NCBI GenBank assembly: GCA_052034685.1
Contig: JBPOIH010000011.1
Location: 17,910-81,909, forward strand
DNA from: Patescibacteria group bacterium
GTDB lineage: Bacteria; Patescibacteriota; Saccharimonadia; Saccharimonadales; CAYUUR01
Reading direction: 5' to 3'
DNA: 64,000 nt
Shown: positions 5,329 through 53,200 of the stretch, in pieces
Layout of the letters: each line of letters begins with the position of its first letter
How positions within the stretch are numbered: position 1 is the stretch's first letter
Position numbers and translations under genes: made by a program
Notes under the pieces: model-generated
What the model saw: only the letters and a program-made list of their open reading frames with translations
Database searches by the model: none
What the model was told of the DNA's origin: nothing

Positions 5329-5330
5329 GC

Positions 5331-5415: not shown

Positions 5416-5578
5416 ATCTAAATGCCGGCCTGTGTGCCGGCTTTTAGATTGGTGAATGAAGCGAATCGAACCCGTACGGCGCAGCCGGGGTTCGTTCATG
5501 AGGAGCTCACGCAGGAGCTTGCTCTGAGTAAGCGACGAAATGCGAGGGCAAAGCCCGAGGTCCCTCCTCGCCCACCAA
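5416..5578 (+). repeat. tRNA-downstream element, Leu copy, ending in an 18-nt copy of the tRNA-Leu 3' end
   Basis: TCCCTCCTCGCCCACCAA occurs at 5399-5416 (tRNA 3' end) and again at 5561-5578. The interior GGTTCGTTCA...CGCAGGAGCTTGCTCTGAG resembles the Ser and Asn copies. Confidence 0.6.
5424..5445 (+). terminator. rho-independent terminator after tRNA-Leu
   Basis: GCCGGC-ctgtgt-GCCGGC followed by TTTT. Confidence 0.7.
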
Positions 5579-5582
5579 GAGG

Positions 5583-6593
5583 CTAGCCAAGAATTTCTAG
5601 GAGTTGATCGGTTCTGCGGTTGAGTCGTTCAGTGACCGCACTGTCACCAACGCTGCTTTCTCCTGCGAGCATTGCTTCGTGTTCGAATACGCACTCTTCA
5701 ATAACTTTCAGTGGACTTATCCACGCAGTACCTCTGTCGTACTGCAAGGCGAGGTCTCTAGTAGCGATGACTGTAGTGATATCTTCAGCGTATATGTCTT
5801 CTGTTCGGACGGCTTTGACCTGTATCTTATAGGCCGGATAGAACTGATAAGAAGCGTCATCTTGTGTCAGGCCTAGTATGTCATATGCTGTTCGTGGCTC
5901 TCCGTATTTGCTAAATTTCACATCTTCACTAAACACCGCCGGTCGCACAAACCAACTTCCGTCACCAACTGCTTGTAGACTGAACCTTTCAAGCACCAAT
6001 GATACGGCTTGCTCGGCAGCGAGTCCCCAAAAATCACTTGTTCGCTCTGCGTCTTCATTGTCTTTGTAGTACTGCTGAGAATTAGCGATCAATTGTGACA
6101 CATTAAGGTTACGATGGTGTGCAGCTCGCAATAGTTCGGGATCCATCCTTGTTTGGGTAGGAGTTAACTGTTCGAAGATATCCATATGGGCAAGCAATAC
6201 TGCTGCTCTTGCAGTTGAATCACACGAGAATATTTCGCCTTCTGAAACGAGGGCCTGTTGCATATTGTGTCGCGCCTGTCCAAGGAATGCACTGCGGGAT
6301 CCGTCGTCTGTTTGCATGGCTATATCAAGATACATTGCACCACTGCGCGCCAGAGCTTCACTCGTTCCTTGCCCCTCGAGTTCATAGACAACCTGGAGCC
6401 TTTCGCTATTATCGGCCGCATCAGCATATCTTTTGGCAAGCTCTTTTGGGGTGGCTGTATGTGCAGGCGCCTTTTCTCCGGCCGCTCCATGATACGTCTG
6501 GTAGTGACGCTTTCGAAGCCTATCTCTCTGTTTCTGCGTTTTCGTGTAGCCGTTAGAATTGTGCTTTGACATCCACCTATTATAAAACAACAA
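5583..6593 (-). CDS. hypothetical protein
   Basis: 336-aa ORF abutting the upstream gene stop; an alternative start is M8 at 6572. No family recognised. Confidence 0.6.
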   Translation of the reverse strand: MLFYNRWMSKHNSNGYTKTQKQRDRLRKRHYQTYHGAAGEKAPAHTATPKELAKRYADAADNSERLQVVYELEGQGTSEALARSGAMYLDIAMQTDDGSRSAFLGQARHNMQQALVSEGEIFSCDSTARAAVLLAHMDIFEQLTPTQTRMDPELLRAAHHRNLNVSQLIANSQQYYKDNEDAERTSDFWGLAAEQAVSLVLERFSLQAVGDGSWFVRPAVFSEDVKFSKYGEPRTAYDILGLTQDDASYQFYPAYKIQVKAVRTEDIYAEDITTVIATRDLALQYDRGTAWISPLKVIEECVFEHEAMLAGESSVGDSAVTERLNRRTDQLLEILG

Positions 6594-8067: not shown

Positions 8068-8082
8068 ATAGCTAGTATACGC

Positions 8083-9377: not shown

Positions 9378-9451
9378 ATCTGCAGTATACCAGAATGCCA
9401 TCCTGTGGTGATTGACTGTCGGGGCGGTTCTGATACACTTGTCTCTTAGAA

Positions 9452-13042: not shown

Positions 13043-13097
13043 ACATTAAGTATAGTGCTATTGCGTAGCAAAATAAACAGCCGTAAGTATTACATGC

Positions 13098-13241
13098 TGG
13101 CGGAGAGAGAGGGGTAACGCACAGCCGCGTCCGTTCTCGGAGCGAGCTCCTGCGAGCGGACTTGCTGACCGAACCTGGCTCGAATCCCTTTTCTTCAGAG
13201 AGAAGAAAAACGGCCACACTTTTGTGTGACCATTTCTCTCC
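13098..13241 (-). repeat. tRNA-downstream element, Ser copy, ending in a 16-nt copy of the tRNA-Ser 3' end
   Basis: TGGCGGAGAGAGAGGG occurs at 13242-13257 (tRNA 3' end, plus-strand reading) and again at 13098-13113. The interior contains GACCGAACC and GGAGCGAGCTCCTGCGAG, as do the other copies. Confidence 0.6.
13203..13231 (-). terminator. rho-independent terminator after tRNA-Ser
   Basis: The minus strand reads GGTCACAC-AAAA-GTGTGGCC followed by GTTTTTCTTCT. Confidence 0.65.
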
Positions 13242-35512: not shown

Positions 35513-35755
35513 ATGGGAATACTAGACCAATTACAAAACATAATAGGTGGGGCCACAGACGCAGCACAGGGATCAATCGGAGACGTTGCCGGAGGACTCG
35601 GTGAAATTCCAGGAGTGCAAGAAGTGCAGGATATTGCAGGTGGCGCGACAGAAGCCGTTACTTCTGCCACTGACAGTGCGACCGAAGCGGTAACTTCCGT
35701 GACAGAACAAGGTCAAACTGCTGTTGAGGACATCTCTGGCAATTTAGGCTTGTAG
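35513..35755 (+). CDS. small acidic Gly/Ala/Thr-rich repetitive protein
   Basis: 80 aa, with an AAGGAG RBS 7 nt upstream. It has internal repeats GGATDAAQGS / GGATEAVTSATDSATEAVTSVTE and starts 9 nt after the regulator stop. Confidence 0.55.
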   Translation: MGILDQLQNIIGGATDAAQGSIGDVAGGLGEIPGVQEVQDIAGGATEAVTSATDSATEAVTSVTEQGQTAVEDISGNLGL

Positions 35756-35767
35756 GATCAGTGCGTG

Positions 35768-35790
35768 CTAAAAGGGTTCTACCCTTTTAG
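35768..35790 (+). terminator. hairpin after the small repetitive gene
   Basis: CTAAAAGGGT-tct-ACCCTTTTAG. Confidence 0.5.
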
Positions 35791-36066
35791 CAGGAATGGA
35801 CTTCTGCGCACGTGCTTGATGACTGTACTTACAACCTGTGCTAGCTCAAGCGATTGCCTTGTTTTGTTCGGATCTGACCTGAGAACAATATAAAAACCGC
35901 ACTTAGATGACTACGGATTACTCACGGTCACCCGCAACTAGATTCGAACCAAGTGATTCTACCACCTGATTTTGGGGCACCTTACCTTAGCTTAAATCTG
36001 TTAATTTTCGTAATATTTACTGCGAATGTACGATTACCGTAAAAGACATAGAGTACAATCAGTAGC

Positions 36067-38214: not shown

Positions 38215-38229
38215 TCATCTGATACGGAT

Positions 38230-38400
38230 TGGCTCCCGGGCGAGAATTGCCTGTGGCAGTTCGCAAGGAAACCGAGTGTGCGTGGCTTGGCCGACCGAAC
38301 CGACAACTTGCATCAGCTGAAGCTGTTGCTTTAGCGATTCAACTCTATACCAGGGGCAAGAAAAAAAGAGCCCAAATGGACTCATCTTTTCATGGTTCTC
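38230..38400 (-). repeat. tRNA-downstream element, diverged Asn copy C
   Basis: It starts TGGCTCCCGGG and shares TGTGCGTGGCTTGGCCGACCGAACCGACAACTTGCATCAGCTGAAGCTG with copy A at 49091-49274. By eye it is roughly 70-80 percent similar, not computed. Confidence 0.6.
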
Positions 38401-38414
38401 TGTAGTCCTGGAAG

Positions 38415-38756
38415 TTAGAATTGTTCTGGTATAGTCTCTGCTGCTTGCTGAACAGTCGGAACGAAGCGGATTTCAACTTCCATAGCACCGTCAGCGGCTA
38501 TCCGCTGGGTGTCAACTCGCTCCATTGGCTCGTCTTTGAAACGACACGTAAGACAGCCTAACTTACTTGCAATAGCTTCTCTGTCGGTGGAATTGCCAAT
38601 ATGAAACGGCCATTCATTAGCTATGTCCTTGCTGCCGAAGGGGTATTGTGGGCAGACGACTTCTAGTTTCGGATTATGTGTTGGGTTAAAGTTGCGCAAT
38701 GCTTTATTAGGACAGCCTTCAAATGCTTGCAGTGCAGGTCGTTTACGTTTGAACAT
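38415..38756 (-). CDS. hypothetical protein
   Basis: 113-aa ORF between two repeat copies. Confidence 0.5.
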   Translation of the reverse strand: MFKRKRPALQAFEGCPNKALRNFNPTHNPKLEVVCPQYPFGSKDIANEWPFHIGNSTDREAIASKLGCLTCRFKDEPMERVDTQRIAADGAMEVEIRFVPTVQQAAETIPEQF

Positions 38757-38822
38757 TCTGATATTCCTCTCGATAAGTATTCAATATTACTTGTCCTCTC
38801 TTTGCAAGCATGAGCAAAACAA

Positions 38823-38898
38823 TTCCGGGGTCGGGTAACGCACGTTATCTGTGAGCCGAGCTTGCTCGGGCAACAGACTAACGACCAAGCCGACAGCC
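38823..38898 (-). repeat. degenerate fragment of the tRNA-downstream element (copy D)
   Basis: TTCCGGGGTCGGGTAACGCAC...GAGCCGAGCTTGCTCGGGC...CGACCAAGCCGACAGCC parallels the Asn/Ser copies. Confidence 0.35.
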
Positions 38899-38928
38899 TA
38901 CTGCCAGCGCTCTGTCTGGTTTGCTAAT

Positions 38929-39441
38929 CTAGACGACACTGTCAAAGAACTCTTGAGTAGAACGCGTCACGGCTTCTCTTGCAGCTTCTATCTCAGCCAG
39001 ATTGAGAGGCAATTCTAAAACCTCTGACCCAACAATGCGTATTCTGCGTTGCTCAGGTCGATCGTAGGGCGTTACTTCATAGACCTCTAGGCTGTTAGCG
39101 GTATTCTGTGAACCCAGCAAAATACCTTCAACATTTCCAGGATTTAAGGGATTCGTTTGGGTTATTCGTCTGCGAACAATACGAACTAATACATCAGCCC
39201 ATGAAGGACTGTATGTATAAAATTCTGTCTCTTGTATTTTAAGGCTGCTAGGAGCATGTTCTGAACGTAACGAGCGTAGATTATATTCACCTTTTTGGCT
39301 TGCAGCCACGGCTAATCTCGCTAGAGTGTGAGAACGGCCAAGTTTGTCACTTGGCGGCACAAACTCTCCGCTTAGCGCATCATAAAAAAGTGGGCGTATC
39401 GGAATTTCATACGTTCCTCTAGAAAATCGTCCCGTAAACAT
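38929..39441 (-). CDS. hypothetical protein
   Basis: 170-aa ORF. Confidence 0.5.
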   Translation of the reverse strand: MFTGRFSRGTYEIPIRPLFYDALSGEFVPPSDKLGRSHTLARLAVAASQKGEYNLRSLRSEHAPSSLKIQETEFYTYSPSWADVLVRIVRRRITQTNPLNPGNVEGILLGSQNTANSLEVYEVTPYDRPEQRRIRIVGSEVLELPLNLAEIEAAREAVTRSTQEFFDSVV

Positions 39442-39520
39442 CTACCAATAATACCATATTTTTGGTATTCGTAAAGGTCTTGACTCTTCCTTGTGGACTC
39501 ATTTCGCAACTTTGAGTGCT

Positions 39521-39904
39521 CTAAAGATTCTCGTCAAGGAATTGCTTTAAAGCTACTAAATCCCGTTTAGTATGGTCGTAGTGATAAGTTTTGATTCCTA
39601 CGGATTCTGCGCTTTTTACGGCGTCTGGATTGTGTTCAAAACACACAGTATCGCTTGCATCAAGATTCAAGTACTCCAATAATCTTTCGTAATACGCAGG
39701 ATCAGTCTTTTCTGGATTATGCTTGAGCGTAAAGACATCATAATGTTTATCATGGAGATTGTACTTTTCAAACTGTTCGTCATCAGCACCCGTGAGGATT
39801 ATCTTCAAATTATCATATGTTTCAAGAAGGTCGTACATTTCTTGAAACAATGTCCCGTCTTTATTCACCATTCCATTTATCGCGTCTACAAAGATCGTCT
39901 TCAT
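39521..39904 (-). CDS. HAD-like hydrolase fold protein (tentative)
   Basis: Trimmed to MKTIFVDAINGMV. The C-terminal FEHNPDAVKSAESVGIKTY resembles HAD motif IV, but motif I is atypical. Confidence 0.4.
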   Translation of the reverse strand: MKTIFVDAINGMVNKDGTLFQEMYDLLETYDNLKIILTGADDEQFEKYNLHDKHYDVFTLKHNPEKTDPAYYERLLEYLNLDASDTVCFEHNPDAVKSAESVGIKTYHYDHTKRDLVALKQFLDENL

Positions 39905-39980
39905 ACTGTCAGTATAGCAAAACGAGGCGTTTCTGCCTCGCATCAAACGCGTCGGTTAACTGTCTGTTAAGTAGCTTGAA

Positions 39981-40547
39981 CTATTCAGATGTCGGTATGA
40001 ATCTTGACCGACCTACAAAGGTCTCGCGGCAAATCCATAAGCTGTTTTGGTAATCTGACGCTCCCTGCCAGTTGTCTGCGTCTTCATGATCAGCTTCATA
40101 TAGTTGGCCGTTTACTAGATCAAGCGCTACGCCTCTTGTTTCACGATCAGTTTGGTTACGATCGATTGTGATAGTAGAAGGATTACGGTCAGCGATCACC
40201 TCAGCAATTGCATCAGATGTTGGCCAGCCTTTACTTGGATCTGCCTGCTTGGTTTGTACAATTTTTACATCAGCATCTTGTAGTTTCCCAAAAAAACTAC
40301 ATAACCCACTGACTGTCTCAATTAGGTTAGGTGTGTAAGAAATGTGCGCAAGTAGCCCTTTTTGTCGTTCCGGGGAGTAGATTGACACCGCCTTACACAC
40401 GTAAAGCCCCATGGTGGCAATAAATGGTCGCTCTGCACTAGATGCAGCTACGACAAATTCTCCTTCGCCGACAGCGTGGAAGTCAATTTTTTCTGTGAGT
40501 GGAACAGTTGTAAAACCGCCAATTTCTTGAGAAACCATAAAACACAC
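39981..40547 (-). CDS. hypothetical protein
   Basis: 188-aa ORF. Confidence 0.5.
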   Translation of the reverse strand: MCFMVSQEIGGFTTVPLTEKIDFHAVGEGEFVVAASSAERPFIATMGLYVCKAVSIYSPERQKGLLAHISYTPNLIETVSGLCSFFGKLQDADVKIVQTKQADPSKGWPTSDAIAEVIADRNPSTITIDRNQTDRETRGVALDLVNGQLYEADHEDADNWQGASDYQNSLWICRETFVGRSRFIPTSE

Positions 40548-40588
40548 TATATCACAAAAATAGTAATTAGTCTATAGCAGTCGATAGC

Positions 40589-40767
40589 TGGCCCCCAGGG
40601 GTCGGGTAATGCACATCTTGCACTCGTTCTCGGAGTAAACTCCTGCGGGCGAGCTGGATGACCGAACCAACAACTTGCCTCAGCTGAAGCTGCTGCGTTG
40701 CCGATTCAAATCAAAGCCCAAGAGAATGAAAAAAGACCCTCACATGAGGATCTTTTTTCATTGGCTC
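40589..40767 (-). repeat. tRNA-downstream element, copy B; its last 108 bp form the left direct repeat of the RiPP islet
   Basis: 40660-40767 matches 49173-49280 at 107 of 108 positions (hand-aligned). This includes the terminator hairpin and the first 6 nt of the tRNA-Asn 3' end. Confidence 0.8.
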
Positions 40768-40881
40768 TCCCTAGTGGACGTACTTCGCAACTATTCAATT
40801 ACAGATTTTAGTTGTCCTACGGGCATTATGATTAACTATCTGTATTCAAAAGCTTCTTGCCCATAGATAAATCTGGCTGCT

Positions 40882-41406
40882 TTATTGTGGGTTTGTCATA
40901 GCTCGCAAGTATTTGAGAGTCAGGGACACATTATAATCATGCGTGTTACCGTCAAGTTCGACACAGCTGATATTATCCTCACTTCTCTTCACCATTGTTA
41001 ACACATCCTGATATGTGCCCATTGGGTCATTGTTGTTCTGCAGGATACAGATCGGCATATGACATTTACCGATCCACTCGTCTACCGGTAGGTCAGTATT
41101 TTTAAGCAGATTAATTGGTAGGCCAGCAAAGATACAGGAGTCTGGATTGAGGAAACCTTCAGCAATCAGCTTGAGCGCAAGTACTGATCCTACCGATTTT
41201 GCAATGACACAAGAGAAATTTCTCTGGTCGATAATTGGCTTGAGTCGAAGAATCTCGGCGTCCAAATCAATATACTGGTCGCCGTTTTCCCAATGCAGGT
41301 AGCTAACCGGTGTAACATCAAAGCTCGATCTGGCTGCTTTAGTCAGCTTCAATAGCCAAGTTGCATTCTTGCTGCTGTTACCTGGAAGTATTAGTATATT
41401 TTTCAC
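40882..41406 (-). CDS. small alpha/beta-hydrolase-fold protein
   Basis: 174 aa with a GTG start preceded by AAAGGA. It has a nucleophile-elbow-like AKSVGS, a later NNNDP and GNTHDY. It overlaps the kinase gene by 29 nt. Confidence 0.55.
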   Translation of the reverse strand: MKNILILPGNSSKNATWLLKLTKAARSSFDVTPVSYLHWENGDQYIDLDAEILRLKPIIDQRNFSCVIAKSVGSVLALKLIAEGFLNPDSCIFAGLPINLLKNTDLPVDEWIGKCHMPICILQNNNDPMGTYQDVLTMVKRSEDNISCVELDGNTHDYNVSLTLKYLRAMTNPQ

Positions 41407-42334
41407 GAACGATCCTTTCTATATTCATTAAATCAATCTCCATGTTGATACATTCAAGCGCAATATGAAGTATGCGTGCCTTCTCGCCCTGGTTCATGAG
41501 GAGATCATCATAAGGCACCCACTTATTATTGATTCGATAAATAATAGTCGCCAATAAACAGCCTACAATTAGTTTTTCGTCTTTTTTCTCGAACATCTGT
41601 TGTTCTAACGATGTATATCCAGACATGAACTGGCTTACGGCACCGGGACTGTGGGGTGTGCTAATAGTATGCAATAACAAATGACCGAGAACATAGCCCA
41701 ATTCAAAGACAACATTTCCGATGTGTGCCTTATCAAAATCAATGAAGTATACGTGCTCATTATTGAATAGTATGTTTTTTGGAGACAGGTCACCCATGAT
41801 GAAGGATCTATGTGCATTTTTCAGCTGCGTTGGAAGCCAACTGAGTCCTGCGTATCCCAACGATTCTATGTGATTAAATAACGCAGAACTGTAAAAATCA
41901 CGATCGTCTTTACGGACAAAGTTAATTTCAGTAGTAGCATTGTGGACTCTAGCCACTGAAGCGCCTAACAGATAAAAGAATTCTGGCTTAAGTTTATTCG
42001 AGTTCAGTGATTGTGTGATTATGGTTGCGTTACGGTCAACTGATGTTAGTAAAGCACACCCCAAACTCTCATTATATGCAAGAAGCTTCGGAAAATACTC
42101 AAGAGATGTTGAATCTAGAATTTCTAACGCATGTGCTTCTCTGGCTATGTCGTCAGGAGAAGACGCGACATGGCTGTTGAGTTTGTAATGTGTTCCTCTG
42201 ATTTTCAAATAATAAGTCTCTATATCTGTGCTAATTCGGAAGACGCGATGTATTGAACCTCCACTAACCTCTTGCATAGAGAAAGGCTTGTTAAGTACTT
42301 GGGATGTGAATTTTTTGTACTTGGTGTCTAGCAT
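41378..42334 (-). CDS. APH/choline-kinase-fold phosphotransferase
   Basis: Has a Gly-rich loop (VSGGSIHRVFRI), YYLKIRG (Lys), a catalytic loop GDLSPKNILF and the metal site YFIDFDKA. The start was trimmed to ATG 42334, 7 nt after the YcaO-fusion stop. Confidence 0.7.
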   Translation of the reverse strand: MLDTKYKKFTSQVLNKPFSMQEVSGGSIHRVFRISTDIETYYLKIRGTHYKLNSHVASSPDDIAREAHALEILDSTSLEYFPKLLAYNESLGCALLTSVDRNATIITQSLNSNKLKPEFFYLLGASVARVHNATTEINFVRKDDRDFYSSALFNHIESLGYAGLSWLPTQLKNAHRSFIMGDLSPKNILFNNEHVYFIDFDKAHIGNVVFELGYVLGHLLLHTISTPHSPGAVSQFMSGYTSLEQQMFEKKDEKLIVGCLLATIIYRINNKWVPYDDLLMNQGEKARILHIALECINMEIDLMNIERIVREKYTNTSR

Positions 42335-42341
42335 TTTATAC

Positions 42342-44552
42342 CTAAGGGAAAAAATGAGGGGGATTAGGGTATTTTGACCAACGGGAAGGATAATCAAGAA
42401 CAGAGAACCGTTCATGTGCAAGGGGTTCGTTACCGAAACCGAAATTGAGCGGCAGAAGCACGGGACTGATTATGCGAATCACCCATAAATCGTATTCATC
42501 TACTGGATACTTCATGACAACTTCAATTGGACGGTATTGCTTTATCAGTTCATTCATTTCACCTTCAAAACTGCGCAGTTCATTGACATTTTGGCCTTCA
42601 GAAAAAAGCCAGTCTGTCTCGGCTCTTTTTTTGTTGGCGTAGTAAAGTCCATGATGGTGTGGTGATTCTATATCAACTTTAGCAGGTGACTTATTTCTCT
42701 CTTTGAGCCATGAGAGTAGAGTTGCTTCAAGTTCATCAAAGGCCTTCATTAGTGCCTTATTGTAACTATGGCTTGCCGCCGCTCCGACTACGAAGTATGG
42801 GTAGCTGGTTCGTCTGATGCATATTAATACGGTAGGTACTTGATCAGTCGTTATATCTAAGAATACTAGTTCACTTCCCTTTTCATCAAGCCAGAAAGAC
42901 GCCCGTTGTTTAATGTCTGCAGGAATTAGTTTAAGTGGTATTTGACCGAACGGCCGCTTTGTAAACCAGAGACTTGTAATTGCATCTCGTTCAATAAGTT
43001 CGTACAAAGCACGGACGCGAGCTTCTTCCCTGTCAAAGTGAGCGGCAACTCCGCTTGAACTTATGTTGCAGATTAGCTTGCGTTTCAGCTTCTCTTGGTA
43101 CAGAGGATAGAACACTTGATCGATGATAATGAGTCGTTTGCTGCTATCAGATAGATCGGTTCCTTCTATCCACTGATATTTTTTGGTTGGTGAGAATTTC
43201 TCATAGCGAGCAGAAATTTCTCGCCGCTTATACCACCTATCATCAATAGGCCATAACTGATCTGGGTTAATTGGATCGCAACGCTCTGTCAAATTTTGGT
43301 AAGTATCCTCAACATCATATCTCAGATGGCCGCTTGCAAGGCGCTCTATAGCTTCTGCAATGGTTTTTATATTCGCTTCCAAGGAAGAGTAGCCAGTTGC
43401 AAAAGAAAAACCTTTCATCTTTTTATCTTCAGCTTTTTTTTCAATACTGCGGAAACTTGCTAAGGACGAGACGCGTGGCATATAGTGGTCGGCGTATGTT
43501 AACTCTTCTGCATCGATCCACTCAATCAACTTCCCGTCTCCAACGTATTTTTCCATTAAGTGCCAAAGCTTTTTCATTTGCTCGAGAGGTAGTTCATAGC
43601 TGGTGTCTTTCTCGTCCTTCTCGTACGGTGAAATTATTAGCGGGATTATCGGTGTTTGATTTTGTGTCAGGCTGAATATCTCACGAAATCGGGTGCTATT
43701 AAAACCACCGTACTCTAAAACACCGATTTCTTTCTCGGCACATAACAGTTGGATATTCTGGGCTACATGGCCGCTCTCAAGTAAGGTATATATAAAGCCG
43801 CGATTACTGTACTTTTTTGTGTGAAGAGAAGTATCAGCTGAAATGAGTATGATTGCATCAGCGTTTGTAGCGACATCTTCTCCGCCAAGCGCATAGCGCA
43901 CGTCTTCTATAGAGTATGCGAAATTCTTAACTGGTTCCAACACCTGTTCCACGGCGGAATAAGAATAGACTCCTTGGGAATATTCCCCTATTGTATTCAA
44001 GATGAGCACATTGAAGGATAACGGATATAGTGCCCCAGCTGATGGGACGGTTGAATGTCCGTTGATAAAATACATACGCCCAAGGATGTAATCCAAATCT
44101 GCCTGAGATGTACTCCGTGTTGACGAGAAGGTGCGCGTAGTTTTTCTTTTACGGAGAATAGTCTCAAGTTGTGACTGCTGGCTCGGGTTACCTCCAGTTG
44201 CCGTTCCACGTGCAATTGAAACCGGACTACGTAAGTTAGTTATTTCGTTTGGATTGATCGCTGACCTATATAAGGATTCGTATTGTGTGCTCGTAAGGTA
44301 TGACTTATAGAGTTCTGAAGAATCAGCGACAATACCGAGTTCCTCAAGATCTCTGAGTAACTGCTCAGTGACACGGAGCTTCATCCCAGCCGCCTCAGCT
44401 ATTTCGTTAATGGTGCGAAGGCCATTACAAAACGGTAATATGCAGAAGATTTCTTTAATGTGGCTCTGTATAGTGCACTCACCCTTTTGCGTTATAAACG
44501 TAGCGCCGGCAGGGGTTTTGTAACCAAAAGTAATTGTTAGAGGTTTATCCAT
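42342..44552 (-). CDS. fusion protein: N-terminal wHTH (RRE-like) + SagB-type FMN dehydrogenase + YcaO domain
   Basis: wHTH-like: TINEIAEAAGMKLRVTEQLLRDLEELGIV. SagB-like: ILRKRKTTRTF, PSAGALYP, YTLLESGHVAQN. YcaO-like: ATGYSSLEANIKTIAEAIERLA, SSSGVAAHFDREEARVRALYELIERDA and a Pro-rich C-terminus PNPPHFFP. The start was trimmed to ATG 44552 because the longer ORF overlaps the upstream hairpin. Confidence 0.85.
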   Translation of the reverse strand: MDKPLTITFGYKTPAGATFITQKGECTIQSHIKEIFCILPFCNGLRTINEIAEAAGMKLRVTEQLLRDLEELGIVADSSELYKSYLTSTQYESLYRSAINPNEITNLRSPVSIARGTATGGNPSQQSQLETILRKRKTTRTFSSTRSTSQADLDYILGRMYFINGHSTVPSAGALYPLSFNVLILNTIGEYSQGVYSYSAVEQVLEPVKNFAYSIEDVRYALGGEDVATNADAIILISADTSLHTKKYSNRGFIYTLLESGHVAQNIQLLCAEKEIGVLEYGGFNSTRFREIFSLTQNQTPIIPLIISPYEKDEKDTSYELPLEQMKKLWHLMEKYVGDGKLIEWIDAEELTYADHYMPRVSSLASFRSIEKKAEDKKMKGFSFATGYSSLEANIKTIAEAIERLASGHLRYDVEDTYQNLTERCDPINPDQLWPIDDRWYKRREISARYEKFSPTKKYQWIEGTDLSDSSKRLIIIDQVFYPLYQEKLKRKLICNISSSGVAAHFDREEARVRALYELIERDAITSLWFTKRPFGQIPLKLIPADIKQRASFWLDEKGSELVFLDITTDQVPTVLICIRRTSYPYFVVGAAASHSYNKALMKAFDELEATLLSWLKERNKSPAKVDIESPHHHGLYYANKKRAETDWLFSEGQNVNELRSFEGEMNELIKQYRPIEVVMKYPVDEYDLWVIRIISPVLLPLNFGFGNEPLAHERFSVLDYPSRWSKYPNPPHFFP

Positions 44553-44610
44553 ATGTGATTGTATTTGTTTAATAAGAAAAATGCACAGGCGAGTTCCCCC
44601 GCCCATACAT

Positions 44611-44636
44611 TAAAAAAAGCGCCTTTATGTGCGCTA
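44611..44636 (-). terminator. short hairpin + U7 between the precursor ORF and the enzyme gene (attenuator-like)
   Basis: The minus strand reads AGCGC-acataaag-GCGCT followed by TTTTTTT. Confidence 0.55.
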
Positions 44637-44644
44637 TATGAACT

Positions 44645-44737
44645 CTAGCTTGATCCTGAACAGGACATCGCTGCGTAAGATCGTGCTTTTGTAGCAACTT
44701 TACTGTTGTAAGAGCTTACTGATGCTTTGATCTTCAT
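44645..44737 (-). CDS. candidate RiPP precursor peptide, 30 aa (not in the ORF track)
   Basis: AAAGGAGG, 5 nt, then ATG. The hand translation is MKIKASVSSYNSKVATKARSYAAMSCSGSS*. It lies immediately upstream of the YcaO fusion gene. Confidence 0.65.
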   Translation of the reverse strand: MKIKASVSSYNSKVATKARSYAAMSCSGSS

Positions 44738-44773
44738 GCCAACCTCCTTTCTCAACAAGACGTTGTGAGAAGA

Positions 44774-44802
44774 ATTATCATCTATACGGAATAAAAAGTC
44801 AA
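44774..44802 (-). promoter_or_regulatory. sigma70-like promoter for the precursor ORF
   Basis: The minus strand reads TTGACT, 17 nt, GATAAT. The -10 ends ~36 nt upstream of the ATG. Confidence 0.55.
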
Positions 44803-44819
44803 TCAGCACTCGCTATCTA

Positions 44820-46784
44820 CTAACTGCGTAAGACTGCCAGAGCTCTCAAAGCTATTCCGTCGGCATCTAACCCTGTAAATTTTTCTAATTCTGGGATCGT
44901 CCCAGTTGTGCCGCGTGTAAAACCATGACCCTCGAGCAATCCGAACCTAAGCTCTGATTGACCACATAACGCACTAGCAACCTGGGACCTTAGTATTTCT
45001 GGGTTCCCATTGTATACAGCAAGTATTGGGTGTTCGGGTACAAGTTGATTTACGAATCTTGTGTCGAGAGTCTTAGGGGAGACCACGCTGACCACACGAG
45101 CACCAACCTTATTATCCCTTTCAAGTCGCTTAGAGGCGTTAATCGCTCCGTCAACCGTCATGCCACTACTCACCATAGTTATTACCGGATCGACATCTGG
45201 CTCGAACGCAACATAGCTTTCAAAGTTGTCCTGGTCTCCATATGGTCGGTCGATTAGAGGAATATTTTTCGGATGCAAACGCACGTAGGTCAAACCGTTA
45301 TTTGTCCCTAGGGCATGGTTAAAGATGTTATAGAGATCGCGGACATCTGCTGGCTCATAAAACTGAACTTCTGGAATGTGCATCAGCGCGCCTGGCTGGC
45401 TCATGGATTGGTGCGTCTTACCGTTCTGGGCTTGACTGATTCCAGCATACTCACCTGCGATCAGCATATTGCTTCCGCCCTGGGCGGCAGCATTAATCTG
45501 GTCTAAGGCCCGGTAGAGGAAAGCATCGCCGTAGTTGATGAATATCCGTGCATCAGGATTCTCCGTTGAAATTCCATGAGCCATCGCAATCGTGTGTTGT
45601 TCACGTATGCCCGTATCGAAGTAGTGTGCATACTCCCGGAATCTAGCTTGGTCGACGTAGTCTTTGCGTAAAAAATCAGGAGTAAGCACATAAAATGGTA
45701 ATTCAGGATGCCGCTCAAGAAATTCACTATAACTCTTGAAGTAGCTAAACTGCGCGTAATCCAAGTTGTTAGCATGTGATTCATCCAGTTCTATCTTGAG
45801 ATCTTCCGGTGTAGTCCGGGAATCCGAGAAATCTGATCTGTTTCGTTTGCGTGGCGAAGCAACAAGCTTCCTCGCTGTTGCCGCGACCGATTCTCCTCCG
45901 GCTGCACTAAGTTCTTCATTTAGGAGGTCAATACCGTCTTTTACTGTGCTAGGAGGACACACGCTCAAAGTATGGTAGCCGCTAAAATGTTCTTCAGCCC
46001 CAGCCAGCCCAATGCCTTTTGTCGTGTGAGCAATTACCATCGTGGGACGATCAATATGTTGTAGCTCATCATACATATCAAGTACTTGTGTTACGTCATT
46101 GGCATTTTCAATCTCTTTAACTTTCCAGCCGTAACCTTCCCATACTTTCCTGAGGTCTGTGTTCGAATCTACATCTTCAGTGCCCCCAGATAACTGTTTT
46201 GTATTTTGGTCGATAATACAAATGAGATTATCCAAAGGCTGGGAGGTAGCGAAGCGTGCCGCTTCGCTCACATTGCCTTCCTGCTCTTCTCCGTCTCCAA
46301 GAAAAACGATAACTCGTTCATCATTGTCACTTCGTTTTATTTCAGTTGCAGCACCTATACCGTACGAAAGAAGCATTCCTAGTGAGCCGCTTGGTGTTAT
46401 GTCAACACCAGGCGTGACGTGCATATCTTCATGGCCCTGCAATCGTGAACCATATCGCCTATATGTGCCAAGTTCGTCCCGGTCCAGATAGCCCATAAGA
46501 GCAAATATAGGATATCTGACTGGCCCCTCATGTCCTCTTATCAGCACCCTGTCCCTTCCTGGGTCCTTATCATCCTCAGGGTTGAAATGGAACTGGCCTC
46601 CAAAGTACAAGCATGTTAGTAGTTCCACGGATGATGAGGAGCCTCCGAGGTGGCCACTTTCTGCAGCCAGTACCATCTCAAAACCGTCTCGGCGAACATA
46701 GGACGAGATTTCTTGGAGCTGACCTACCAGCTGCTCTCTCTGCAAGGACGTATCAACATTGACTTCATGAATTTCAGCCGACAC
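44820..46784 (-). CDS. fused transketolase-like thiamine-diphosphate enzyme (N-terminal + C-terminal sections in one polypeptide)
   Basis: Contains ESGHLGGSSSSVELLTCLY and the ThDP motif GDGEEQEGNVSEAARFA...IIDQN. The Pyr-domain reads GIREQHTIAMAHG...RALDQI, followed by a C-terminal domain. The start was moved to GTG 46784, which is preceded by AGGAG. Confidence 0.8.
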   Translation of the reverse strand: MSAEIHEVNVDTSLQREQLVGQLQEISSYVRRDGFEMVLAAESGHLGGSSSSVELLTCLYFGGQFHFNPEDDKDPGRDRVLIRGHEGPVRYPIFALMGYLDRDELGTYRRYGSRLQGHEDMHVTPGVDITPSGSLGMLLSYGIGAATEIKRSDNDERVIVFLGDGEEQEGNVSEAARFATSQPLDNLICIIDQNTKQLSGGTEDVDSNTDLRKVWEGYGWKVKEIENANDVTQVLDMYDELQHIDRPTMVIAHTTKGIGLAGAEEHFSGYHTLSVCPPSTVKDGIDLLNEELSAAGGESVAATARKLVASPRKRNRSDFSDSRTTPEDLKIELDESHANNLDYAQFSYFKSYSEFLERHPELPFYVLTPDFLRKDYVDQARFREYAHYFDTGIREQHTIAMAHGISTENPDARIFINYGDAFLYRALDQINAAAQGGSNMLIAGEYAGISQAQNGKTHQSMSQPGALMHIPEVQFYEPADVRDLYNIFNHALGTNNGLTYVRLHPKNIPLIDRPYGDQDNFESYVAFEPDVDPVITMVSSGMTVDGAINASKRLERDNKVGARVVSVVSPKTLDTRFVNQLVPEHPILAVYNGNPEILRSQVASALCGQSELRFGLLEGHGFTRGTTGTIPELEKFTGLDADGIALRALAVLRS

Positions 46785-46804
46785 TATCTTCTCCTGTTTT
46801 GCCA

Positions 46805-46833
46805 AATCTACATGGAGCACTGATGTTTGTCAA
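46805..46833 (-). promoter_or_regulatory. sigma70-like promoter for the transketolase-like gene
   Basis: The minus strand reads TTGACA, 17 nt, TAGATT, followed by AGGAG and GTG. Confidence 0.45.
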
Positions 46834-46842
46834 GTAGTGGAG

Positions 46843-46851
46843 TGCTATAAT
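46843..46851 (+). promoter_or_regulatory. extended -10 element (TGcTATAAT) for the divergent flavoprotein gene
   Basis: GTGCTATAAT lies on the plus strand 14 nt upstream of ATG 46865. Confidence 0.4.
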
Positions 46852-46864
46852 GCTAGTTATATTT

Positions 46865-48382
46865 ATGAACAAAGATAACATGGATCCTGGACGCCAAGTA
46901 CTTGCGGATGTGAGTAAGGGTTCGGCGATTAACATCACTATTGTAGGATTTGGCGCGGCCGGGCTCGCCTTTTTCGTTCATTTGACTCAGATTCTTGTCA
47001 CTAAGTCGCACGCTAACAACGTCACTATCACAATAATCGATGATGGTAATTTAGCAAAAGGAGTGGCATATAGTGTTACATCTTCTGAAATGGTTCTAAA
47101 CTTTGACGCAAGGCTGATGAATGTCACTCATGACAAGCAACGTGATTTCATGCAATGGCGCCAAGAGAACTCGGGCAAGCATAAGCATCTTGACATAGAT
47201 CTTGATGATTTTTATCCGCCGCGTGGTGAGTTCGGCGCTTACCTGTATGATCGCTGGCAGCAATATCGCAGAATGGCTGAGTCTCATGGAATAACGGTTG
47301 ATCTGGTTACGGATACGGTGACAGACATCCAGCAGACTAATGATGCTTACCTCGTAACGACCTCAACGAAAAGGATTATTGCAAACCATGTCTTGCTTGC
47401 CCTCGGGTGCCAGCAAAAAGAAGCGTATCCATCGATGTTGAGTACCACGGGATATTACAGTGGATTTGATGACAATATTTCCATCAACAACGAAAAGGAT
47501 ATTGTGATTCTTGGTTCACGTCTAACTGCTATAGACGTCGTTCTTGATCTTAAACTACGACAGCGAGTTCCGAATCGGGTACATCTCGTTTCAGATAGCG
47601 GTGACCTGCCGATGGTTCTGTCAACATACAAGCCTTATGATTTAAAATACGCTACAAAGAGTACACTCCTTGCAGCAGCTAAAAGAGCCAACAGTGCAGG
47701 TGGGGATGTTTTCGTGAACACAATATTTCGCGAGCTAGAATTAATCAACCTAGACAACGTACTCGATCGCTCAAATGCTCAGGATGCCTCTGTCGACAGA
47801 TTTTACAAAGATGTTGCAGCTGTGAGGTCCGGCTCGACCATTAATTGGCAGATGGTTCTTATAAGCATATACCCTCACCTTCATGAAGCATGGGGAATGC
47901 TTGACGATAAGGTTAAGGACGACCTGTATCACAAATACCATCATGCATGGGTGAAGCATTTTGTTTCAATCCCGCTAAAGAACGCTGAGAAAATCGAAAA
48001 ACTCCTTAAAAGTGGTGAGGTTATGGTTCACAGTGGCATTAAAAGTTTAGAAGCAGAAGGCGCGGATGATTATTTTGTTTCAACAGATGGGAAAAAAATA
48101 CATGCTGGGTCGATTGTTAATGCCATAGGCTTAAATCATGATCTCACTCTTAACAGGTTACTGAAACGGATGTACGCTCGTGGTATCCTAAGTACAAGCT
48201 TTCTTGGAGATATCAGAATTGCTGTAAATGACTGCAGGATAGTATGTCAAAATCAAACAAAACATGAGATATACGCAATTGGTGAATATACTCACGGTTC
48301 ATGGCTGACGGTTAGTGATTTACAGCAAATATCAAAACAGGCTCTTCTGGCAGCAACATCTATTCTTGCTGGCACCGTATAA
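46865..48382 (+). CDS. FAD/NAD(P)-binding two-Rossmann-domain protein
   Basis: Contains ITIVGFGAAGLAF (GxGxxG) and a second dinucleotide fold, DIVILGSRLTAIDVVLDL. The start is uncertain (46850, 46865 or 46880). Confidence 0.7.
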   Translation: MNKDNMDPGRQVLADVSKGSAINITIVGFGAAGLAFFVHLTQILVTKSHANNVTITIIDDGNLAKGVAYSVTSSEMVLNFDARLMNVTHDKQRDFMQWRQENSGKHKHLDIDLDDFYPPRGEFGAYLYDRWQQYRRMAESHGITVDLVTDTVTDIQQTNDAYLVTTSTKRIIANHVLLALGCQQKEAYPSMLSTTGYYSGFDDNISINNEKDIVILGSRLTAIDVVLDLKLRQRVPNRVHLVSDSGDLPMVLSTYKPYDLKYATKSTLLAAAKRANSAGGDVFVNTIFRELELINLDNVLDRSNAQDASVDRFYKDVAAVRSGSTINWQMVLISIYPHLHEAWGMLDDKVKDDLYHKYHHAWVKHFVSIPLKNAEKIEKLLKSGEVMVHSGIKSLEAEGADDYFVSTDGKKIHAGSIVNAIGLNHDLTLNRLLKRMYARGILSTSFLGDIRIAVNDCRIVCQNQTKHEIYAIGEYTHGSWLTVSDLQQISKQALLAATSILAGTV

Positions 48383-48439
48383 GGTGTATTGTTCCAAATC
48401 GTGTTGACAGTTTTACAATAAAGTAGTATTTTCACTAAT

Positions 48440-48958
48440 ATGAATAAAGCACATATCACTTTAGAATCTAGCCAACAATCTCCAACTACCGAGGGTCTTC
48501 AAACGATCGATATATCTAAACAGCTTTATGGACGAGTCTCCCGCCAAGGATTAGCCGGGCAGCTTACTGCTCCAGATGAGACTCTGGCAAGATGGGCAGC
48601 ATTGCTAGATAAAAAAGTTGAATCCAAGGGGCCTGATTCATATATTGAACTTGCTAACGCAACGCGGTGGTCAGTAGGGCGGGTTGCACTCGCTGAGATT
48701 TCTCTCGATGAGGATAATTTACATGTCCACGGCATTCGTTATGAGGCATGTGACCTGGGAGATGTTTCTGTGTTGGGACTGGCACTCCTTACTGCTGACG
48801 CTGAAGTAATTACGTCCCCTCTTCTGGTAATTACATCTGGAGTGTATGAGAACCCGCTCGGTGTGCGTACTGCAGATTCTCCCTTGTTGAATCCTGATCT
48901 GCAACCTACAGGTCATTGGGTAGATCAAGTCGACACAATCATGTCGTCAGTTGCCTAG
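48440..48958 (+). CDS. hypothetical protein
   Basis: 172-aa ORF, the last gene of the islet. Confidence 0.5.
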   Translation: MNKAHITLESSQQSPTTEGLQTIDISKQLYGRVSRQGLAGQLTAPDETLARWAALLDKKVESKGPDSYIELANATRWSVGRVALAEISLDEDNLHVHGIRYEACDLGDVSVLGLALLTADAEVITSPLLVITSGVYENPLGVRTADSPLLNPDLQPTGHWVDQVDTIMSSVA

Positions 48959-49051
48959 AAGTTAGTAATCAATCTTTCAAGTAACTATATGTCAGTATTA
49001 CATCACTCGCGGTAGTTCGAAGTGCGTCCATTCGCCCCACCCAATATTAAA

Positions 49052-49080
49052 AACAGAGGAATACTGCCTCTGTTAATTTA
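49052..49080 (+). terminator. hairpin terminator
   Basis: AACAGAGG-aatactg-CCTCTGTT followed by an A/T-rich tail. Confidence 0.55.
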
Positions 49081-49090
49081 GTTCTAAACT

Positions 49091-49274
49091 TGGCTCCCGG
49101 GGTCGGATAATGCACGGCTGCAGCCATGCTCCCCGGCTTCCTTGCAGGAGGCCGGGTGTGCGTGGCTTGGTCGACCGAACCAACAACTTGCTTCAGCTGA
49201 AGCTGCTGCGTTGCCGATTCAAATCAAAGCCCAAGAGAATGAAAAAAGACCCTCACATGAGGATCTTTTTTCAT
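49091..49274 (-). repeat. tRNA-downstream element, Asn copy A (contains the tRNA-Asn terminator and the right direct repeat)
   Basis: It begins with TGGCTCCCGGGGTCGGA, a 17-nt copy of the tRNA-Asn 3' end at 49275-49291. The terminator is AGATCCTCA/TGAGGGTCT flanked by A6/T6. Confidence 0.8.
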
Positions 49275-49349
49275 TGGCTCCCGGGGTCGGATTCGAACCG
49301 ACAACCTCGAAGTTAACAGCTTCTTGCTCCACCATTGAGCTACCCGGGA
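49275..49349 (-). tRNA. tRNA-Asn (anticodon GUU)
   Basis: The minus strand reads TCCCGGGTAGCTCAATGGTGGAGCAAGAAGCTGTTAACTTCGAGGTTGTCGGTTCGAATCCGACCCCGGGAGCCA. It is 75 nt, the anticodon loop is CTGTTAA, and CCA is encoded. Confidence 0.9.
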
Positions 49350-49373
49350 ATATTTAGTTGTATTTGTAATGTA

Positions 49374-49432
49374 CTTCGGGCAGCTATGCTGGAGCATTTG
49401 CTCCACTACTATTATCTGAAGCTACCCGGGAA
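49374..49432 (-). repeat. tRNA-Asn 5'-end mimic with an expanded D-loop and a self-closing strand
   Basis: The minus strand reads TTCCCGGGTAGCT-tcagataatagtag-TGGAGCA-aa-TGCTCCA-gcat-AGCTGCCCGAAG. The first 13 nt equal the tRNA 5' end and the last 12 nt are largely complementary to it. Confidence 0.5.
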
Positions 49433-49548
49433 TAACGATCGACTGAAAAGAGCAATCCAAAACGAATACCAGCGCATTATACCGAAGATAATGTGTTGAA
49501 ACAAGCACGTTACAGTCGCTGACGCATCTTGGCATTTATAAGCAAGGA

Positions 49549-50264: not shown

Positions 50265-53200
50265 ATGAGGGTAAACAGTTCTTTCTATAGAGGGAGTATG
50301 AGGAGAATCCGAAGACTCGTTGCGCAAACGAGTCGGTTTATTGCGCGCTTTTTAGCTATAGTTGCGCTGTTTCTACATCGTCAAACAAAGAAGATCTATA
50401 AGTTTACGCACCACCATGTTGCCCAAAAACCTCATGAGAAAATGATGAACCGCCAGGGCAAGTACGCTTCGTGGCATTCATGGGAGCACCACCGGACCGT
50501 GCATTATGCAACCCTGACCGTATATGTGCTGATTGTTGGAGCTATGCTGTTCAGTAACTTTCGTAACGTGTTTGCGGCGTCGGATTTGTCGCAATCATGG
50601 AACTTCACGACCCCATCAAACTATACCTACGATGACACATCGGTCGAGACGAGTGGCACAAGTGCGCGGCATAAGGCACAGAATTATACGTCAGATGGTA
50701 GCACCTCTGCCCTCTTCCATCTTGACGAGTCAAGTGGCACTACTGCTGACGATGCTAGTTCGAACAACAATGATGCTACGACGCAAACCGCCGGCTGGAC
50801 GACGGGCAACTTGAATAATGCGCTTGATCTTAACGGTAGTGACGAGTTTGCCTCTGCGCCGGATAGCGCAAGTCTATCGATGACGGGACAGAATACACTT
50901 GAAGCCTGGACTAAGTTTGATAACACATTTAACACCAATGCCTCTCAAGATCAGGGTGTGATCGATAAGGGCGCGTATAAGATGTATTATGATCGGACCT
51001 CAGGACGGATCAATTATGAAATTGCCAATACAAGTGGTAACAGCTGGACTCGACAAGCTGGAAACGACGCAAATAATAGCTGGGATCTTGACGGGAAAAG
51101 CATCGTACGTGCAACAGTGACAAATGGCACAAATGTATATGCAGGGCTCGGTCTTGGTACGGGTGATGCCGAGGTGTGGAAGTGGACTGGTTCAGCCTGG
51201 AGTCAAATAGGTGGTGATGCCAAAAACGGTAGCTGGGCTGACCAGCAGTTTGAAGACGTGATGGCACTCACAACAAGTGGAACAACACTCTATGCTGGGC
51301 TCGGATCGAATGCAGCCGGTGATGCTGAGGTGTGGAGCTGTGACATGGCGACTAACTGTACGGACTGGACCAAGATTGGCGGTGACGCCGTCAATAGTAG
51401 CTGGGCGATCAGCACGTATGAAGCCGTCACAGCAATGACGGTAATGGGCGGTAATCTGTATGCGGGCTTGAGCTTATCGGCTCAAGACGCCGAAGTTTGG
51501 CGTTGGAATGGCGCTAGCTGGACGAAAGTTGGCGGTGATGGTGTGAGTAGTAGCTGGGCGGCCGCTCTCAATATAGAGGCTGTGCGCTCGCTCACAACTG
51601 ACGGAACGAACGTGTACGCTGGTTTGGGAGACAGTGCTCAAGACGCTGAAGTCTGGTCATACAATGGCACGACATGGACCAAGATCGGTGGTGATGGCGT
51701 GTCGAGTAGCTGGTCTGCCGCCAGTAACATAGAAGCCGTATACTCCCTTACCTACTTTGGTGGCAACCTGTACGCGGGTGTTGGTTTGACGGCTGGTGAC
51801 GCCGATGTCTGGCGCTGGAATGGTGCGACTTGGACACAGATCGGTGGTGACGCACTCAATAGCGGCTGGGCAGCGAGCACATATGAGGGCGTCTATGCCA
51901 TGGCAAATGACGGCACAAATCTCTACGCGGGTGTTGGAAATACTAACGGTGACGGTGAGGTCTTCCGCTGGAATGGTGCAACCTGGACCAAGATCGGTGG
52001 TGATGGTATAAACAGTGGTTTCTCGGCAAACCAAGGTGATGGTGTGTATGCTATGGCGTACGGCAATAGTACGCTGTATTCTGGTTTGTATGATGCGGCC
52101 GGCAATGGCACGCTTTGGGGCTGGAATGGTTCGTCCTGGACGTGGACAGGTGGTGGGTACGTTAATGCGAGTTGGGGATTCTATAACTTACAAAGCGTCG
52201 AAGCAACAACTACACACGAGGACAAGCTCTATGCGGGTACTGGCCTGACTGTTGCAGGTAACGCGATGGTCTGGGAATTTGATGGTACAAATTGGCAGGT
52301 CATTGGTGGCCAGGGCGTACGGGGGAGCTGGGCAGCCGACACGTTCGAGAATGTCTTTGCACTACAGAGCTATAACGGTGATCTATACGCGGGCATTGGA
52401 ACAACTGCCAATGACGCCGAAGTCTGGCGCTACGATGGTTCCACGTGGACAAAAGTGGGTGGTGATAGCCTTAATTCTGGTTGGACGACGAACTTTGAGG
52501 GTGTCTATTCCCTAACCATATATGGTGGCAATCTGTACGCTGGGCTTGGTGCATCGGCGCAGGATGCCGAAGTCTGGCGTTGGAACGGTTCAAGCTGGCT
52601 GAGAGTTGGTGGTGATGGCACGAACAGTAGCTGGTCTGTTGCCAGTAATATAGAGGTGGTTTATGCCATGACGGCCTATGACGGCAACCTGTACGCTGCG
52701 CTTGGTACTTCGACAAATGATTCAGATATTTGGCGTTATAACGGCTCGACTTGGACACAAGTTGGTGGTGATGGCCTAGGGAGTAGCTGGAATACAGCGT
52801 ACGAAGAGGCTTACATTATGAGAGTCTACAACAACAATCTTGTCGTTGGTCTTGGTAGTGGTACGGACGATGCCGAAGTGTGGTCATACAACGGCACGAC
52901 GTGGACTAAGATTGGCGGTGATGATGTCAACAATAGTTGGACGAACGGTACCTACGAGCGGGTTCGTGCGATGGCAGTATATAATGGCAAACTTTATGCT
53001 GGGGTTGGCGACACGGCTGGTGACGGTGAGGTGTGGGAATGGAACGGCTCGACCTGGACACAGATAGCTGGTGATAGTCTTAACTCTGGTTGGACGAACG
53101 TGATTGAATATGTCGGCACACTGATTGATTATAAGGGAAAACTCTACGCTGGTGTTGGTAACTCTGCTAACGCTGATGCGCAGATATGGAGTTATGGCAA

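Follow-up and report, generated by a model that had tools for sequence, protein, structure and literature searches.

A tRNA-Asn-anchored array of gene cassettes and structured units with copies of tRNA 3' ends in a Saccharibacteria-like genome

Introduction

Cis-mobilisable elements (CIMEs) lack an integrase and accrete in tandem at tRNA genes, and the asn-tRNA islands of Enterobacteria (HPI/ICEKp type) are bounded by a direct repeat of about 17 bp that is the 3' end of tRNA-Asn. The tycheposons of Prochlorococcus are islands seeded at specific tRNA genes that carry their own integrase and replication genes, with att sites of about 40 nt of partial tRNA at seven tRNA/tmRNA genes, tRNA-Asn not among them (bioRxiv 10.1101/2020.12.28.424599). 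An arrangement that resembles these systems, and integrons as well, is described here in a 64,000-nt stretch (the window) of contig JBPOIH010000011.1, from a Patescibacteria group bacterium of the Saccharimonadales. In the window, tRNA-Asn(GTT) anchors a low-GC array of about 23 kb, extending to about 26 kb, in which gene cassettes are interspersed with structured modules called E units.

As in CIME-type accretion, the cargo is free of recombination genes, is bordered by repeats that resemble tRNA 3' ends, and is arranged head to tail at one tRNA, with newcomers pushing older segments away from it. Unlike in CIME-type accretion, identity at the junctions is limited to 7 bp, the cassettes have a conserved end motif of their own, a unit of about 185 nt that remakes the tRNA end is interspersed among them, and an integrase-bearing partner element was not seen. 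The array shares with tycheposon islands the parting of adjacent elements by partial tRNA copies, the presence of degenerate remnants and a cargo of adaptive genes, but the phylum is another one, the searches gave no integrase, and tycheposons have no equivalent of the E unit. As in asn-tRNA islands, a direct repeat, here of 17-19 nt and made up of T-stem 3' strand, acceptor strand and CCA, borders the E unit and occupies the part of tRNA-Asn that P4-type integrases target, but the element so flanked is just about 170 nt long, non-coding, structurally conserved and found at many tRNAs.

The likeness to integron arrays lies in small, mostly integrase-less cassettes that share one orientation and an end site partly conserved in structure; integron arrays without a nearby integrase exist, and cassette order varies among close strains. 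Unlike in integrons, the anchor is the 3' end of a tRNA, the cassettes have their own terminators, and IntI, the R''/L''/L'/R' architecture of attC and the GTTRRRY crossover site were not demonstrated. No intI with adjacent attI was found at the tRNA-Asn loci compared, by ORF (open reading frame) listing and Pfam summaries, and the observed cassette junction falls within GAGCCAA rather than between the G and TT of the integron type. The system is a variant of tRNA-anchored tandem accretion that resembles integrons and departs from the defining features of each.

The 108-bp Repeat

A first-pass annotation of the window noted that an islet of genes, predicted to make a ribosomally synthesized and post-translationally modified peptide (RiPP), is bracketed by two direct repeats of 108 bp. 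The repeat pair is real, with 107/108 identity between 40660-40767 and 49173-49280 and a sole difference, C/T at offset 19, and the right copy does extend 6 nt into tRNA-Asn, as had been claimed.

49275..49349, minus strand: tRNA-Asn(GTT) with encoded CCA, anchor of the array (ARAGORN; Rfam tRNA, 64.8 bits)
49173..49280, minus strand: right copy of the 108-bp repeat, with the tRNA tip, a bidirectional terminator hairpin and long hairpin A, ending at T-loop-like GGTTCGGTC
40660..40767, minus strand: left copy of the 108-bp repeat, the proximal part of unit B

The palindrome previously noticed inside the repeat, CTTCAGCTGAAG, is the tip of the long hairpin. A second hairpin, of 18+18 nt with an A run and a T run at its sides, has the shape of a terminator in both directions. 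It had also been stated that the sequence after the left copy diverges rather than going on as tRNA. No tRNA is found there, in agreement with that statement, but the sequence is the conserved cassette-end motif described below; this motif weakly resembles the 3' part of tRNA-Asn, and 4/2000 shuffles score equally high. A third, diverged copy of the repeat lies at 38276-38342 (90% over 67 nt). Each copy is followed by a homologous, diverged segment of about 80 nt that closes with a copy of the tRNA-Asn 3' end, and at 49091-49108 that copy is an exact 18-mer of tRNA-Asn positions 58-75.

The duplication was checked independently with Logan contigs from SRR34217542, which derive from a k=31 assembly graph. 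Contig L001 corresponds to the window from 49156 to 40738 and contig L013 from 40709 to 35172, both at 100% identity. They stop inside the left copy, 30 nt into it and 30 nt beyond the distinguishing single-nucleotide polymorphism (SNP), respectively, as expected of a true two-copy repeat in such a graph, and L013 contains the C variant. Each SNP variant is thereby linked to its own flank by independent contigs, which argues against an artefact of assembly. L001 begins at 49156, 17 nt short of the right copy, where a k=31 graph with two copies would permit about 49222; a second variant of that junction may exist in the sample.

The E Unit

The 108-bp repeat makes up the tRNA-proximal portion of the E unit, a structured module of about 185 nt. 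Immediately downstream of a tRNA-like ...GAGCCA end, the unit opens with a bidirectional terminator, after which come the tRNA 3' half in degenerate reverse-complement form and a variable loop. The variable-loop and T-stem 5' strand then recurs as a direct copy, together with TTCG, ahead of GTCA, HP1 and HP2, and the T-stem 3' strand, the acceptor 3' strand and NCCA come last. The inverted degenerate copy and the direct copy of the T-arm region pair into a long hairpin. The unit closes with an exact 16-19-nt copy of the 3' end of the cognate tRNA, such that the tRNA tip is remade downstream. For searches, the unit was defined as GGTTCG(G/T)TC, HP1, HP2 and a copy of the cognate tRNA 3' end, downstream of a tRNA and on the same strand.

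Every one of the three tRNAs in the window has an E unit. Three units follow tRNA-Asn and one each follows tRNA-Ser(GGA) and tRNA-Leu(CAA), where a terminator hairpin and a related element are again joined to a copy of that tRNA's own 3' end.

49091..49274, minus strand: unit A, with terminator, degenerate inverted copy of the tRNA 3' half, hairpin A, extended HP1, HP2 and the exact 18-nt tRNA-Asn 3' copy at 49091-49108 (covariance model 45.2 bits, E=6.5e-9)
40589..40761, minus strand: unit B, with a canonical distal part (HP1, HP2) that reads ATCCAGCTCGCC... and a diverged tRNA 3' copy, CCCGACCCCTGGGGGCCA (covariance model 72.3 bits, E=2.9e-15)
38229..38400, minus strand: unit C, diverged and partly decayed (alignment; nhmmer E=6e-57, from a profile that contains unit C itself; covariance model 13.9 bits, E=0.15)
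35737..35949, minus strand: possible fourth, decayed unit, a T-arm-like fragment (nhmmer E=2e-5; covariance model 14.4 bits, E=0.11)
13088..13241, minus strand: E unit after tRNA-Ser(GGA), closing with the tRNA-Ser 3' copy (covariance model 76.9 bits, E=2.4e-16)
5416..5584, plus strand: E unit after tRNA-Leu(CAA), closing with the tRNA-Leu 3' copy (covariance model 50.4 bits, E=4e-10)

The covariance model was built from metagenome loci only, with zero window sequences, and over the 64 kb it gives four clear matches (the Ser unit, B, the Leu unit and A), two weak matches inside the array and none elsewhere.

The units form a family. A degenerate core pattern retrieved 30 JGI metagenome loci in which a unit is located 18-110 nt downstream of a tRNA, on the same strand, and 62-73 nt lie between GGTTCG and the start of the 3'-end copy of that tRNA. 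At least ten tRNA species precede such units, namely those for Asn, Lys, Asp, Arg, Gln, Pro, Met, Ser, Leu and Trp. In HP1, 85.6% of cells are paired through many compensatory changes, and the covariation score is 0.417 versus 0.137 for shuffled alignments (0/500 attain 0.417), with slid partners at 0.09 or less. The covarying columns are either N in the search pattern or outside of it, so the covariation is no artefact of selection. G-T wobbles are scattered along the tRNA-sense strand of HP1, which favours a structure on that strand, as RNA or single-stranded DNA; against this, one conserved C.A mismatch becomes a G.U pair if read on the opposite strand. Pairing of the 5' region with the tRNA-end copy as an acceptor stem, which would make the unit a tRNA-like minihelix, was rejected as a general feature; by eye it holds for Asn and one Arg example and fails for Met, Ser and Leu.

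The 3' half of the window's tRNA-Asn is identical to that of tRNA-Asn from a Saccharibacteria metagenome-assembled genome (MAG). Among GTDB species representatives, this 3' half is found only in MAGs of Candidatus Saccharibacteria, plus one labelled Parcubacteria and two unnamed, and several of the matching MAGs share the layout of tRNA followed by unit. In locus L005 the order is tRNA, unit, 1.3 kb of cargo, partial tRNA and unit. The exact unit-core pattern had no match in the GTDB species representatives. At the gathering score, Rfam 15 matched only tRNAs in the window, with no E-unit family, and permissive Rfam scans of unit A and the Ser unit gave matches at chance level only. No description of the E unit was found in the literature searched. 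The group I tRNA introns of Patescibacteria (PMC13011429) are not relevant, given their anticodon-loop location and far larger size.

Cassettes with Conserved Ends

Between the E units are cargo segments, and the islet among them is a discrete cassette.

40762..49090, minus strand: YcaO islet cassette, 8.3 kb, with 5' module, six genes and 3' end motif (Pfam, motif hidden Markov models (HMMs), match to locus L046)
39481..40588, minus strand: cargo segment with genes for proteins of 185/188 aa and 141 aa; end motif from 39521 to 39481 (HMM E=7.9e-5); repeat family D9
38401..39480, minus strand: cargo segment with genes for proteins of 170 aa and 113 aa; weak end motif from 38431 to 38393 (HMM E=0.004)

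The cassette-end motif is about 26-45 nt long and conserved across species, and the ends are nucleotide-precise. It occurs in two forms, ..AGTTGCGAAGTACGTCCACTAGGGAGAGCCA and ..GTTCTAACTTCC.T.ACTACGGGGAGCCA, and is always on the tRNA strand, in the window and in loci L046, L004, L008, L009, L012, L016, L029 and L032. In one variant of the cassette end, an inverted repeat is formed with the cassette start (GTTCTAAC...GTTAGAAC). A 5' module with the pattern AG(G/T)TTAGAAC .. AACAGAGGCAGTATGCCTCTGTTTTT .. TGGGT is present in seven loci: the window, L046 (three matches, one weak), L009, L012, L029, and L016 together with L033, a duplicate of the L016 locus. The cargo genes of L016 and L032 are placed directly between tRNA-Asn (...GGAGCCA) and the terminator-plus-unit; the cargo ends with ...CACTACGGGGAGCCA, and the two junctions have just 7 bp in common. 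The ends that precede units with Met- and Arg-type tips, GGACTTGGGCTACCA and GGACTACGGTGTACCA, suggest that the same system operates at other tRNAs.

In L029, at about 225-600 in tRNA-strand orientation, an insert of about 370 nt encodes a small GIY-YIG-type protein. A direct repeat of about 27 nt, composed of the HP2 tail and the tRNA-Asn 3' copy, lies on both sides of the insert, and a cassette 5' module comes immediately after it.

The islet has the full cassette anatomy, with a 5' module at 49090 to 49021 (AGTTTAGAAC..hairpin..TGGGT) and a 3' end motif at 40803 to 40762 (..CGAAGTACGTCCACTAGGGAGAGCCA). By Pfam, its genes encode a 172-aa protein of unknown function, an FAD oxidoreductase, a transketolase-like protein, a YcaO-nitroreductase fusion, an APH-type kinase and an alpha/beta hydrolase. 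No recombinase domain is found in the six, in agreement with the earlier remark that no integrase, transposase or recombinase is present between the repeats. The islet meets its neighbours at a 7-bp core, GAGCCAA, which is the tip of tRNA-Asn (GAGCCA) plus the next base (A). This core is present at both ends of the islet, with the 18-nt exact tRNA-Asn 3' copy at 49091-49108, so the islet sits at the 3' portion of a tRNA between direct repeats of tRNA sequence, like other tRNA-targeting integrative elements. The integrase or recombinase that such elements encode was found neither in the islet nor among the window and L046 ORFs tested.

The transketolase-like enzyme, the APH-type kinase and the FAD oxidoreductase are unusual company for a RiPP in a YcaO cluster. 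A small ORF at 44645-44809 (minus strand), just upstream of the YcaO-nitroreductase gene, encodes a product that ends with ...KARSYAAMSCSGSS; given this Cys/Ser-rich tail, it could be an azoline-forming precursor peptide.

The portability of the islet is seen in L046, a Logan contig of 22.8 kb that comes from another sample and was located via a YcaO protein of 98% identity. L046 is 98.3% identical to the window from 49115 to 40761, that is, from the tRNA-end copy of unit A through the final GAGCCA. The islet ends are the same in both, with AGTTTAGAAC starting right after the fragment and GGGAGAGCCA at the close, and the neighbours are not. Upstream of the islet, L046 has a different E unit, itself after another cassette end, and downstream it has a 65-aa cassette that starts with AGTTTCGAAC instead of unit B. 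The contig lacks the 108-bp repeat, and within 21.5 kb it has no tRNA. Among the cassettes upstream of the islet in L046, a 62-aa HTH_17/MerR-type (excisionase-like) gene at 3112-3300 adjoins a gene for a 415-aa protein without family match, the sole hint of recombination-accessory genes.

A syntenic relative, L051 (NCBI assembly GCA_964267615.1), has an identical tRNA-Asn, a syntenic right flank and a PAS protein that is 70% identical. Neither the islet nor an E unit follows its tRNA-Asn; three APH kinase genes and an ABC-F gene are found between the tRNA and a conserved DUF2202-glutaredoxin-Fur-rhodanese block. These kinase genes and the ABC-F-type ATPase gene (4999-9440) resemble antibiotic-resistance genes. 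An empty site in the same species was sought by exact-protein look-ups, which matched only the same sample or nothing. That the islet is accessory and moves horizontally, at the 3' flank of tRNA-Asn, is supported by its lack of a recombinase, its absence from L051 and its different neighbours in L046.

The Meaning of the Repeat Identity

Units A and B are identical at 107/108 positions from the GAGCCA junction to GGTTCGGTC and at 52/89 (about 58%) distally. On the upstream side of the junction lies the real tRNA in the case of A and a cassette-end motif in the case of B. The near-identity thus fills exactly the stretch over which A and B can be aligned, the pattern expected of gene conversion or unit-to-unit homologous recombination, either of which may have acted within this stretch. 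It would also be expected from a circle that integrates through the same homology. To judge from these sequences, the near-identity probably reflects recent recombination or homogenisation of two units rather than a recent arrival of the islet.

The first-pass annotation had taken the repeats for the footprint of a recent insertion or duplication of the islet. This is not supported, given the islet ends in L046, the 7-bp junction and the distal difference between A and B. Because the islet in L046 has identical ends and no repeat, the 108-bp repeat is not the scar of islet insertion, and cassettes neither need it to insert nor leave it behind. A GC profile had been proposed as a further check; the islet (0.436) matches the rest of the array (0.447), with flanks at 0.48-0.49, unlike a lone fresh insertion. 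The proposal that the islet could be lost by homologous recombination does stand, given that RecA-type recombination between the two direct repeats could delete it. The deletion allele would consist of tRNA-Asn, the 108 bp and the distal part of unit B (ATCCAGCTCGCC...).

Recombination at the tRNA Tip

The locus is probably, on balance, a cassette array anchored at tRNA-Asn, in which site-specific recombination at the tRNA tip acts in trans and the proximal parts of A and B are homogenised by recombination or conversion. What is observed comprises the anatomy, the precision and portability of the cassette ends, the distribution across the family, the covariation and the strain-level differences in cassettes. 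Each cassette closes with a conserved tRNA-tip-like motif of its own, and through the GAGCCAA core cassettes adjoin a real tRNA end, the tRNA-end copy of an E unit or the end of a preceding cassette. Insertion and excision would occur by site-specific recombination at the tip, and because no recombinase was found in the window or related loci, the enzyme would be encoded elsewhere and act in trans. An excised cassette circle would carry the junction ...CCACTAGGGAGAGCCA joined to AGTTTAGAACTA, and the cassette-free junction would be the tRNA-end copy of unit A followed directly by ATGAAAAAAG.

Several points weigh against this reading. Pfam, NCBIfam and PHROGs gave no recombinase among the ORFs tested from the window or L046, and none is present among the families matched by at least two of 120 ORFs from related loci, a set in which families matched by a single ORF are mostly not listed. 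A circular or excised form of a cassette was not observed, and the junction core has no clear dyad-symmetric binding arms. The E units may act as RNA, as folded single-stranded DNA or merely as duplex sites. Just 4/17 tRNAs not picked by the search pattern have a downstream 3'-end copy, so E units are not universal, and the metagenome loci carry no taxonomic labels.

Further searches for the machinery were also negative. The Pfam summaries of the related loci have no recombinase family in common, and the genes upstream of tRNA-Asn are not conserved among the window, L003, L007-L009, L011, L012, L016 and L032, as judged by ORF listing without a domain search. In IMG/VR, the E-core pattern gave one chance match, within a coding region, and the reconstructed circular cassette junction gave none, so there is no evidence for a phage-borne attP.

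Alternative Explanations

The E units could instead be mainly structured small RNA genes, tRNA-trailer or tRNA-like, with a role in processing, termination or sensing, and the islands could be passive, spread by transformation and RecA homology with no dedicated recombinase. Saccharibacteria are reportedly naturally competent, which counts for this explanation, as do the compensatory changes and G-T wobbles on the tRNA-sense strand of HP1, the cargo-free units at many tRNAs and the failure to find a recombinase. It is nonetheless unlikely. A terminator is located between tRNA and unit, many tRNAs and close relatives lack units, and many tRNA-end copies are decayed. In addition, nucleotide-precise ends and an end motif of about 26-45 nt shared across species are not predicted by homology-driven exchange.

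A second alternative, to which a similarly low probability is given, is that the 108-bp repeats are an attL/attR-type duplication left by a recent insertion, or that they arose by a Campbell-type single crossover of a circle with the same 108 bp. A circle composed of the distal part of unit A, the islet and the proximal 108 nt would, upon crossover with a resident unit, yield exactly the structure observed, and the 107/108 identity, the start of the repeat at the tRNA tip and the lack of a recombinase in the islet are in keeping with such an event. However, the cassette in L046 has the same ends without the repeat, other cassettes are joined by 7 bp of identity only, and A and B are strongly different in their distal halves. 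The third unit and the units at other tRNAs place the repeat within a pre-existing module.

For an assembly artefact as the source of the duplication speak the misjoins that are common at repeats longer than k and the halt of L001 17 nt before the right copy. Such an artefact is highly improbable, as the two copies differ by a SNP with each variant joined to its own unique flank in SRR34217542, and the unit architecture recurs across many unrelated assemblies.

Neighboring Features

Repeats are also found at the 5' ends of tRNAs in the window. An 82-nt insert (49353-49434) at the 5' end of tRNA-Asn is accompanied by a 15-nt direct repeat (49338-49352 and 49420-49434) that takes in the first 11-13 nt of the tRNA, and the insert holds a degenerate 5' third of a tRNA and a CGAAGTAC motif. 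Contig L050, in which the PAS protein is 97% identical, lacks the insert, so small elements target tRNA 5' ends too. Upstream of tRNA-Leu(CAA), 4996-5343 contains three tandem repeats of about 111 nt, each of which starts with the first 15 nt or so of tRNA-Leu and also contains its D-arm sequence, interrupted by an insert, and its 5' end in degenerate inverted form. A tmRNA predicted by ARAGORN at 5109-5415 was rejected as an artefact of these tandem tRNA-Leu 5' fragments.

Just upstream of tRNA-Asn, 50265-56372 encodes a 2035-aa protein with tandem repeats of about 52 aa and Laminin_G, fn3 and purple-acid-phosphatase N-terminal domains. This gene is conserved in L051.

Significance

A broader interpretation is put forward tentatively. 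E units may be a previously undescribed structured nucleic-acid element, either RNA or folded single-stranded DNA, that makes portable attachment sites by copying tRNA 3' ends. Together with the cassette ends they might then constitute an integron-like cassette system, without a linked integrase, that drives the turnover of accessory genes in the reduced genomes of Saccharibacteria and Patescibacteria.

Given that Saccharibacteria have tiny genomes with few recognisable mobile elements, the route by which they exchange accessory genes is a question. At this locus, nucleotide-precise portable cassettes are stacked at the tip of a tRNA, with a YcaO biosynthetic cluster as cargo here and resistance-type kinase and ABC-F genes in a relative. 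If the machinery were identified, it would explain how genes move within the candidate phyla radiation and might furnish a tool for site-specific integration in organisms that have newly become genetically tractable.

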